DNA of 64,000 bases from a phage. The stretch lies in sequence record PZ496581.1. One strand, 5' to 3'. Positions 47,177 to 49,053 of the stretch are shown here, one piece after another (position 1 is the first letter of the stretch; the number at the start of each line of letters is the position of its first letter). The notes beneath the pieces were generated by a model. It was not told where the DNA came from and made no database searches. It saw only the letters and a list, made by a program, of their open reading frames with translations. Position numbers and translations under genes: made by a program.

Positions 47177-47488
47177 TTATACCGCCATTTTAGCTTTGAT
47201 AGTTGGATGAGATTCGTAATTTTTAAGAACGAAATCAGAATGTGTCATCGTTCCAGTAACCCAGTCCATTTGGATTTTTGTAGGCCAATTCTCAAAATTA
47301 CTAGGCCAATTAATTTCAAGAGAACATAATTCTTTAGGTTCACGACGAAGAACTTCTTTGCATTGTTCTACATGATTGCTGTAGATATGCGTGTTGCCGC
47401 CTGAGAACACTAAATCACCTGGGATAAGGTTACACATCTTCGCTACAATATGCGTCAAGGCAGCGTACGAGGCAATGTTGAACGGCAG
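47177..47488 (-). CDS. td: Thymidylate synthase, exon 2
   Basis: Encodes LPFNIASYAALTHIVAKMCNLIPGDL.FSGGNTHIY..; 312 nt as in T4 td exon 2; begins immediately after the intron terminal G. Confidence 0.9.
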   Translation of the reverse strand: MPFNIASYAALTHIVAKMCNLIPGDLVFSGGNTHIYSNHVEQCKEVLRREPKELCSLEINWPSNFENWPTKIQMDWVTGTMTHSDFVLKNYESHPTIKAKMAV

Positions 47489-48504
47489 CATTATGTTCAG
47501 ATAAGGTCGTTAATCTTATCCCGGAATTATATCCAGCTGCATGTCACCATGCAGAGCAGACTATATCTCCAACTTGTTAAAGCAAGTTGTCTATCGTTTC
47601 GAGTCACTTGACCCTACTCCCTAAAGGGATAGTCGTTAGGCATTTATGTAGAACCAATTCCACTTATCAGATTTTACACGGTAAGTAACTAATCCTGATG
47701 AAATTTCAAAATGTCTAGCCGCATCGGCTGCACATTCAAAAATAATCCCATCGCATGAAATCTTTTTGATGTTAGCTGGCTTTTTGCCTTTCATCTTTTC
47801 AGATAGTTTAGTTTTAGTTTTTTCTGAATGTTTGTGATTAAAGAACGGGTTATTTTCACCTGAACGTTTTCGGCACTTTCCACAAGTATCGGCCGAAGAT
47901 GGTATGCGAACACCGCATTTACAAAACTTGTGGTTTTCTGGATTCCATCGGCCATTTTTACTTCCGTGTTTACCATAAAGAGCTTTCCGACCATCAGGAC
48001 CAAGCTTAAGCATCTTAGCTTTAACAGTTTCAGCTCGTTTCTTAGCAATTTCTTCTTTTAATGGATGATTTGAAAGCACATCGCCAAAAGACGCATCAGC
48101 AATATTATATCCATTAATTTTAGAATTTAGCTCTTTAATCCAAAAATTTTCTCGTTCAATAATCAAATCTTTCTCATATGGAATTTCTTCCAGTACAGAG
48201 CATTCAAAAACATTACCATGTTTATTAAAAGACCTTTGAAATTTTATAGAAGAGTGAACACCGTTTTCAAGGTCTTTAAAATGTCTCTTCCATCTTTTCT
48301 CAAAATCTTTAGCACTTCCAACATACACTTTACCGTTTAAAGTGTTTTTAATCTGATAAATTCCGCTTTTCATAAACACCTCTTTTTATATAGAAGTATT
48401 TATTAAAGGGTAGTCCTACAATTTAGCACGGGATTGTCTACTAGAGAGGTCCCCCGTTTAGATAGATTACAAGTATAAGTCACCTTATACCTAGGCCTAA
48501 ATTA
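47489..48504 (-). mobile_element. Group I self-splicing intron in td, carrying the I-TevI homing endonuclease gene
   Basis: 1016 nt between td exons; 5' end (minus strand) TAATTTAGGCCTAGGTATAAGGTGACTTATACTTGTAATCTATCTAAACGGGGGACCTCTCTAGTAGACAATCCCGTGCTAAAT closely matches the remembered T4 td intron; exon 1 ends ..CTTAGGT and intron ends ..ATG as in T4. Confidence 0.92.
47636..48373 (-). CDS. I-TevI GIY-YIG intron homing endonuclease
   Basis: 245 aa from ATG 48373 (MKSGIYQIKNTLN.KVYVGSAKDFEKRWKRHFKDLE..) near-identical to T4 I-TevI including zinc finger and C-terminal DNA-binding domain; the listed ORF start at 48379 is a GTG. Confidence 0.95.
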   Translation of the reverse strand: MKSGIYQIKNTLNGKVYVGSAKDFEKRWKRHFKDLENGVHSSIKFQRSFNKHGNVFECSVLEEIPYEKDLIIERENFWIKELNSKINGYNIADASFGDVLSNHPLKEEIAKKRAETVKAKMLKLGPDGRKALYGKHGSKNGRWNPENHKFCKCGVRIPSSADTCGKCRKRSGENNPFFNHKHSEKTKTKLSEKMKGKKPANIKKISCDGIIFECAADAARHFEISSGLVTYRVKSDKWNWFYINA

Positions 48505-49053
48505 ACCTAAGAAAACATCTACACTGCGTTGATACCATTGTAAATCAAGATGACCATTACGCACATTGAACTGATAGAACATATGGCAAGGAGGAAGAGC
48601 CATTTGGTCAATTTCGGCTGGGTTCCATGCAGAAACTATTTGACGACGATCATTAGGAAGAGCTTTAATACGGTCGATAGTTTTGACCAATTGGTCTACA
48701 CCACCAAAATCACGCCATTGCTTACCATAAATAGGACCAAGTTCGCCGCTATGATATCCAAGGTCTTTTGCCTGATTTTCATAGTTGTCGTCCCAAATAG
48801 TTTTACCTTGAATAAGACTACCATGAGTACGAATACGCAAATCATTAACATTGGTAGAACCAGACATGAACCACAGTAGTTCGGCAATACAAGCTTTCCA
48901 TGCTAATTTCTTAGTTGTTACTGCAGGGAATCCTTTAGTCAGGTCCCAACGTAATTTAGTTCCGAACAGGGCAATTGTTCCTGTGCCTGTACGGTCGTCT
49001 GTTTCGTAGCCATTTTCTAGGATATCATTAATCAGGTATTGATATTGTTTCAT
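48505..49053 (-). CDS. td: Thymidylate synthase, exon 1
   Basis: Encodes [67 protein letters not shown]..; 549 nt as in T4; in-frame stop follows at the 5' splice site. Confidence 0.93.

Follow-up and report, generated by a model that had tools for sequence, protein, structure and literature searches.

What gene structure underlies three neighboring open reading frames (ORFs) that together hold the pieces of a thymidylate synthase gene? The question is raised by the td locus, positions 47177-49053 on the minus strand, of a 64,000-nucleotide (nt) stretch of phage DNA (sequence record PZ496581.1), the whole of which is called the window below. The ORF track of the window lists td exon 1, the endonuclease I-TevI and td exon 2 as three separate ORFs: the first stops just inside 48504, the second is given as 247 amino acids (aa) from an upstream GTG, and the third ends at 47177. 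We conclude that the element is almost certainly a mobile td group I intron of the IA2 type, in its TuIa variant, that interrupts the gene for thymidylate synthase in an RB69-like (Mosigvirus) phage. In the annotation, the three ORFs should be merged into one spliced td gene and an intron-encoded endonuclease; td is best labelled neither as a pseudogene nor as two genes.

The td exons and the spliced product

Exon 1 (48505-49053, minus strand) has 549 nt, or 183 codons, starts with the ATG at 49053 and ends with ...UUCUUAGGU (RNA ...UUA GGU). Exon 2 (47177-47488, minus) has 312 nt, comprising 103 codons and the TAA stop. The intron between them (47489-48504, minus) is 1016 nt long, begins with UAAUUUAGGCC and ends with ...AACAUAAUG (RNA ...AUAAUG), the terminal G being at 47489. 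The first-pass annotation of the locus had proposed that td is split by a 1016-nt group I intron carrying a 245-aa I-TevI, and these lengths and coordinates are exact to the base. It had also recognized that the ORF track breaks the locus into unrelated ORFs, and had argued that a self-splicing intron is required to produce thymidylate synthase. The latter claim is upheld by the colinearity of the exons with intron-less td genes and by an RNA fold that is backed by covariation, by minimum free energy (MFE) folding and by the Rfam scores of ORF-less relatives.

Joining the exons (49053-48505 and 47488-47177) restores an 861-nt frame that encodes 286 aa, so splicing is needed for thymidylate synthase. 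Aligned to thymidylate synthase, as had been suggested as a check, the spliced product matches the Pfam model Thymidylat_synt (PF00303) in a single stretch with 325.5 bits, over profile positions 1-266 of 266, and contains the PPCH stretch with the catalytic cysteine. Compared with uninterrupted td genes, the joined exons give a single ungapped alignment of 861 nt, with 98.4% identity to APCEc01 and 97.3% to RB69; among the intron-less td matches listed, all 60 align in one piece with 95.6-98.4% identity. This shows the 1016 nt to be a discrete insertion placed precisely at the 48505|47488 junction. The insertion point follows the glycine codon of ...VFLG|LPF..., between the codons for Gly183 and Leu184, and is homologous to the position in T4; the junction ...VDVFLG|LPFNIASY... 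is the same in the window and in T4. Both exons are under strong purifying selection, the ratio of nonsynonymous to synonymous substitution rates (dN/dS) between the window and RB69 being 0.023.

Secondary structure of the intron RNA

The IA2-type intron, marked by P7.1/P7.2 and P9.1/P9.2, consists of two catalytic parts separated by the I-TevI ORF. The 5' part (intron nt 1-96; 48409-48504, minus) contains the guide sequence GCCUAG (48496-48491), P2 (48490-48473), the 5' strand of P3 (48466-48461), P4-P5-P4' (48457-48428) and the 5' strands of P6 and P6a. The same assignment of 5' helices is found for the homologous Shinka intron in the Rfam alignment. The 3' core (47489-47653, minus) contains P6a'/P6', P7 (GACUA, 47634-47630), P7.1, P7.2, P3', P8, the J8/7-P7' segment AGAUAUAGUCU, which agrees with the RF00028 consensus, P9, P9.1, P9.2 and the terminal G. 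As described for T4, the 3' strands of P6a (CUACA, 47651-47647) and P6 (GC, 47641-47640) come from the last codons of I-TevI. The last six bases of exon 1, UUAGGU, pair with the guide sequence as P1, in which the U at -1 forms the U.G wobble with G9 of the intron.

Helices P1-P9.2 were mapped by hand, as 74 pairs, on the window row of a MAFFT alignment of 12 introns with the ORF loop removed (window, T4, U5, Shinka, PspYZU05, EcL8g, EI, Ursula, SYGD1, GRNsp7, the Joad thymidylate synthase intron and EC6 nrdD). All 74 pairs, including those of the core helices P3, P4, P5, P6, P7 and P8, form in the window sequence, in line with the conserved P1-P9 core that the earlier annotation had expected. 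Over the alignment, 95.8% of cells are paired, compared with 31-44% when partners are slid by 1-3 columns, and both sides have changed in a compensatory manner in 32/74 pairs. None of 500 shuffles reached any of the five pairing measures. The P7.1, P7.2, P9.1 and P9.2 helices are 83-100% paired and also show compensatory changes. An unconstrained MFE fold of the 280-nt ORF-less window intron (z = -2.77) recovered P1-P6, P6a, P7.1, P7.2, P8, P9, P9.1 and P9.2, and missed only the P7 pseudoknot.

Several points weigh against this interpretation. At gathering thresholds, the Rfam search of the whole window gave no match; in a permissive search, RF00028 matched the window intron with 36.2 bits (E=4e-7), below the gathering score of 50. 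In that match the 3' half (P7, P3', P8, J8/7, P9) is well aligned and the 5' half is misplaced inside the ORF; the score is sub-threshold because the 738-nt ORF sits in the P6a loop. The covariance-model search that had been put forward as a check thus stays below its cutoff on the ORF-bearing window intron and exceeds it on four natural ORF-less td introns, which align over their full length with 66.9 (Shinka), 70.3 (SYGD1), 77.1 (GRNsp7) and 63.8 bits (EI) and have flanks nearly the same as those of the window. The structure used for pair counts was drawn from the window and T4 sequences and is favored over the slid controls for that reason; the compensatory changes in P3, P6a, P7.1, P7.2, P8, P9, P9.1 and P9.2 are independent of how the structure was drawn. 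MAFFT aligned P1-P2 of the distant Joad and EC6 rows poorly, and the few unpaired P1-P2 cells are artefacts of this misalignment. Finally, splicing, late expression and homing are predicted for the window's td intron and its I-TevI by homology with T4.

Non-coding differences between the window and T4 introns fall at intron nt 6, 13, 14, 54, 92-94, 118-119, 128, 883 and 986. None of them breaks a helix, each being located in a loop or preserving pairing. In the guide sequence, GA>AG at nt 13-14 gives GCCUAG in the window and GCCUGA in T4; combined with a synonymous substitution at exon position -4 (UUG in T4, UUA in the window), it yields U.G, U-A and A-U pairs in the window P1, versus U-A, U.G and G.U in T4. 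At nt 986 a G.U pair of P9.2 in T4 is replaced by A-U, and the difference at nt 883 sits in the P7.1 loop. The change G>U at nt 6 lets intron nt 6-8 (UAG) pair with the first three bases of exon 2 (CUG) as P10; the third P10 pair covaries in other phages too.

Origin of the intron in an RB69-like genome

The 24-kilobase (kb) stretch around td is 95-96% identical to the Mosigvirus (RB69-like) genomes a20, NRG-P0074 and 348Ecol098PP, and its genes follow the order frd-td-nrdA.2-nrdA-nrdB-denA-rnlA-alc, as they do in RB69 and APCEc01. The latter two phages have the order frd-td-nrdA.2-nrdA-nrdB-denA in common with the window and td exons 97.3-98.4% identical to it, but lack the td intron. The reading that fits the window best is a Mosigvirus (RB69-like) backbone, natively without segG, mobE and the nrdB intron (PMC2993671), that gained the td intron.

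Within 45 nt on either side of the insertion site, the window and the intron-less RB69 and APCEc01 differ only at -4 (A versus G) and -1 (T versus C; GGC in the intron-less alleles). The base at -1 is T in every intron-bearing allele examined and C in the intron-less RB69-type alleles; as U in the RNA it is the partner of G in the splice-site U.G pair. A search around the insertion site for a co-conversion tract of the T4 type found none, and the codon at -20 to -18 is AGT, as in RB69-type phages, versus TCA in T4 and U5. Hence a T4- or U5-like phage was not the direct donor. Comparing the window with T4, synonymous divergence (dS) amounts to 1.53 for td exon 1 and 0.51 for I-TevI; since the latter is threefold lower, the intron is younger than the split of the host lineages. 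This contrast fits horizontal spread by homing.

An opposite history, in which the RB69-like lineage had the intron ancestrally and its intron-less relatives lost it precisely, rather than a later gain from T-even donors, seems unlikely to us. Precise loss is possible in principle, and the near identity of flanking exons in relatives with and without the intron would agree with it, but the low dS of I-TevI relative to exon 1 speaks against it, as does the C at -1 of intron-less alleles, which is incompatible with the U.G splice-site pair. The ancestral state is also at odds with the report that RB69 and RB69-type genomes are free of homing endonuclease genes (PMC2993671).

With later gain as the preferred reading, we tentatively suggest, as a conjecture held at somewhat less than even confidence, that the TuIa-type td intron is a distinct lineage that crossed from T-even-type (Tequatrovirus) into RB69-type (Mosigvirus) phages and then co-adapted to the host exons. 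The details that back co-adaptation are the C>T change at -1, which restores the U.G pair; the G>A change at -4, which with the GCCUAG guide tightens P1; and U6, which gives a three-pair P10 with CUA or CUG. A review of 2010 found no convincing evidence of these introns moving between phage genome types (PMC2993671). If the conjecture is true, the evidence of cross-type movement that this review found wanting would be supplied by the window together with about 20-30 sequenced relatives. The point can be seen in public records and may already have been published. The td intron living in an RB69-like genome is the sole mildly notable point of the locus, and it opens no new question. An earlier survey of T-even introns, from 2004, reportedly carried the words 'recent transfer of old introns' in its title, which agrees with horizontal spread by homing.

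The I-TevI endonuclease and its control region

The I-TevI ORF (47636-48373, minus) lies in the P6a loop, opens with the ATG at 48373, closes with the stop at 47636 and encodes 245 aa. Its product is identical to T4 I-TevI at 217/245 residues (89%; 28 differences), and the alignment shows that G4-I5-Y6, Tyr17, Arg27, Glu75 and Asn90 are kept, as are the zinc-finger cysteines Cys151/153/164/167. The Pfam domains GIY-YIG (61 bits), I-TevI_ZnF (63.4), NUMOD3 (24.7) and I-TevI_DNA-bd (108.2) are all found, and the solved domains of T4 I-TevI match end to end (residues 1-97, 1MK0/1LN0; residues 130-245, 1I3J). The protein thus has the linker zinc finger of I-TevI and its C-terminal DNA-binding domain, made up of a minor-groove helix and a helix-turn-helix. 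Relative to T4, dN/dS is 0.125 over the whole ORF; by domain it is lowest in the catalytic part (0.07), followed by the DNA-binding domain (0.12) and the linker (0.21). RB69 and APCEc01, whose td genes are intron-less, carry the I-TevI cleavage motif CAACG at positions -27 to -23, and such alleles are plausible targets of the enzyme.

These data make it very unlikely that the intron splices while I-TevI is inactive in the window lineage, being passively inherited with its ORF heading for deletion as in Shinka, SYGD1, EI and GRNsp7. In favor of it, ORF-less td introns do occur naturally, and the 28 amino acid differences from T4 are concentrated in the linker. On the other hand, the frame is full-length, all catalytic, zinc-finger and DNA-binding residues checked are retained, and the overall dN/dS of 0.125 extends over a dS of 0.51. 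That td alleles about 96-98% identical occur both with and without the intron fits ongoing mobility, and intron-less alleles carry the CAACG motif.

The control region of I-TevI (48372-48404, minus) combines a conserved late-promoter-like motif, AATAAATA (48404-48397), inside an operator-like sequence, CUACCCUUUAAUA, with a 12-base-pair hairpin (48403-48372), in which the GAGG ribosome-binding site is sequestered along with the first two bases of the AUG. The folding energy of this hairpin is -11.6 kcal/mol in the window and equally in T4 and U5; its changes relative to T4 either lie in the loop (nt 118-119) or turn a U-A pair into U.G (nt 128). This layout agrees with the published control scheme, in which I-TevI is translated from late transcripts only and its operator overlaps the late promoter; TuIa and U5 variants of the hairpin were noted in the same review (PMC2988022). 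The operator-like sequence of the window (48404-48416, minus; intron nt 89-101) resembles the T4 homing-site sequence CUACCGUUUAAUA more closely than does the operator of T4 itself, CUUGCCCUUUAAUA, which is one base longer.

Proposed mechanism

By homology with the T4 td intron, the td pre-mRNA would fold into P1-P9.2, and an external guanosine would attack 3' of the U in the P1 U.G pair. The terminal G would then take the place of the guanosine, and the exons would be ligated into an mRNA for the 286-aa thymidylate synthase. In early and middle transcripts the hairpin would hide the ribosome-binding site of I-TevI; late transcripts, starting at the promoter inside the hairpin, would be without its 5' arm, so that I-TevI would be made late. 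In a mixed infection, I-TevI would cleave td alleles that lack the intron, at 23-25 nt upstream of the insertion site, and the td intron would spread as the break is repaired from the intron-bearing copy.

That the intron is instead a splicing-dead relic, with td a pseudogene and the phage relying on host thyA, is exceedingly improbable: the intron scores under the Rfam gathering threshold and its splicing is predicted by homology, but all core helices form, every change relative to T4 keeps pairing, the U at -1 and the terminal G are both there, both exons are intact with the low dN/dS relative to RB69, and the same intron is found at 99% identity or more in about 30 phage genomes.

Intron and endonuclease content of the genome

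The nrdB gene (43345-44523, minus; 392 aa; Pfam Ribonuc_red_sm) is uninterrupted. In tblastn comparisons it runs unbroken through residue 225/227, the point at which T4 and a20 are split by gaps of 598 nt and about 1.1 kb, respectively. The nrdA-nrdB spacer (44524-44578, 55 nt) is without mobE or nrdB.1, and the gene 32-59 spacer (51615-51751, 137 nt) is without segG, an arrangement shared with RB69 and APCEc01. A tblastn search of the 64-kb window with T4 SegG, MobE, I-TevIII and the two extra a20 endonucleases gave no match; this screen misses divergent GIY-YIG genes, and two seg-like ORFs surfaced only from the ORF list. An intron-less nrdB and the lack of segG had both been noted in the first-pass annotation, and both observations stand. 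Its description of the phage as a mosaic relative to T4 is true as far as it goes, and an RB69-like backbone plus a td intron describes the genome better.

A counterpart for this comparison is a20, whose td locus is 99.7% identical to that of the window, with 96.5% identity over the 24-kb region. Unlike the window, a20 carries two further elements, a free-standing endonuclease gene located upstream of nrdA and an intron in nrdB that encodes an endonuclease of its own; these extra loci, at 10208-10843 and 13977-14786 of a20, correspond to 46835-46921 and 43345-44523 of the window. The NrdB proteins of a20 and the window are 89.8% identical over residues 1-225, upstream of the intron site, and 100% identical over residues 227-392, a step that may be the footprint of co-conversion or recombination. 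Within a region of roughly 8 kb, three such elements are present in a20, one in the window and none in RB69 or APCEc01. The locus adds another case in which nearly identical T-even-like phages carry introns and homing endonucleases in a patchy manner.

The two seg-like ORFs lie elsewhere in the window. An ORF of 260 aa (16003-16785, plus), directly upstream of a UvsW-like helicase ORF (16791-18305), matches SegE_GIY-YIG (30.3 bits) and GIY-YIG (25.8 bits), both above their cutoffs. It looks like a free-standing segE-like homing endonuclease gene, and its position is presumably the one that segE occupies in T4. The other, an antisense ORF of 219 aa (9901-10560, minus), lies between a major-capsid-like ORF (8275-9843, plus) and a capsid-gene-like ORF (10934-12214, plus). 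It begins with MNYLIYKITNLINNKIYVG, which is GIY-YIG-like in look, and scores only 20 bits against SegE_GIY-YIG (cutoff 25); its position and orientation recall T4 segD (PMC2988022). Given these two ORFs, the window is not free of free-standing endonuclease genes.

Two further features of the window were observed. Near its acidic C-terminus, the gene 32-like single-strand-binding protein (305 aa; 50697-51614, minus) contains a short tandem duplication and, after it, a run of alanines. Besides the 3' half of the td intron, the permissive Rfam search yielded one other hit: a weak, sub-threshold match to the MicX small RNA (12144-12257, minus; 31 bits versus a gathering score of 75, E=0.006) overlaps the end of the capsid-gene-like ORF and is probably due to chance.

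Comparison with known td introns

The td-type 3' core is found at 90% identity or more in about 250 phage records, and the non-coding parts of the intron at 99% identity or more in about 30. Natural td introns without I-TevI are known from Shinka (320 nt), SYGD1 (320 nt), EI (315 nt) and GRNsp7 (254 nt). Shinka and SYGD1 have kept the last ~70 nt of the I-TevI ORF, which provide P6a' and P6'; EI has only a shorter ORF remnant, and GRNsp7 has a new, short hairpin (CAGC-AGUA-GCUG) in place of P6a. In Erwinia phage Joad, the gene for thymidylate synthase is split by a related intron (about 1065-2130) that encodes a GIY-YIG endonuclease and has a 3' core 74% identical to that of the window. The Joad insertion point lies 21 nt upstream of the one used in T-even phages (YQR|SADVFLG), near the I-TevI cleavage position of the target.

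The experimentally characterized reference, T4 (NC_000866), has the same insertion site, exon lengths (549 and 312 nt) and P1-P9.2 architecture, and likewise carries I-TevI in the P6a loop with the same late-promoter and hairpin layout. Its 3' core is 98.6% (144/146) identical to that of the window. The entire intron is only 90.2% identical to T4 and 88.6% to U5, and the T4 td intron in RefSeq is 1017 nt long versus 1016 nt in the window, the extra base lying upstream of I-TevI in the P6a-loop/operator region. The T4 td exons are only 78.5% and 69.3% identical to those of the window, because the host of the window intron is RB69-like and not T4-like. The comparison with T4 in the first-pass annotation calls for two minor amendments: the one-base difference in intron length, and the nearest intron, which is found elsewhere.

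This nearest intron is that of TuIa (AY262157), identical at 1015/1016 positions, and phage a20 matches equally well (1015/1016). TuIa shares the insertion site, both non-coding intron parts (100%) and 737/738 bases of I-TevI; its flanking exons are 96.8% and 98.1% identical to those of the window. It differs in one ORF base and in a few synonymous exon changes, such as the exon 2 start CUA versus CUG in the window. The TuIa record is a fragment of 1.5 kb only, reportedly deposited with the T-even intron survey of Sandegren and Sjoberg (2004, J Biol Chem 279:22218), which both reviews cite (PMC2993671, PMC2988022). In other Mosigvirus genomes with split td genes (for example a20, OQ067374; NRG-P0074, PQ480333; AV110, OR352940) the whole td locus is 99.1-99.8% identical to that of the window, and their annotation gives two thymidylate synthase pieces and a homing endonuclease. 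The element, its mechanism and its exact sequence variant are already described, and they are public in the TuIa record and the annotated Mosigvirus records.

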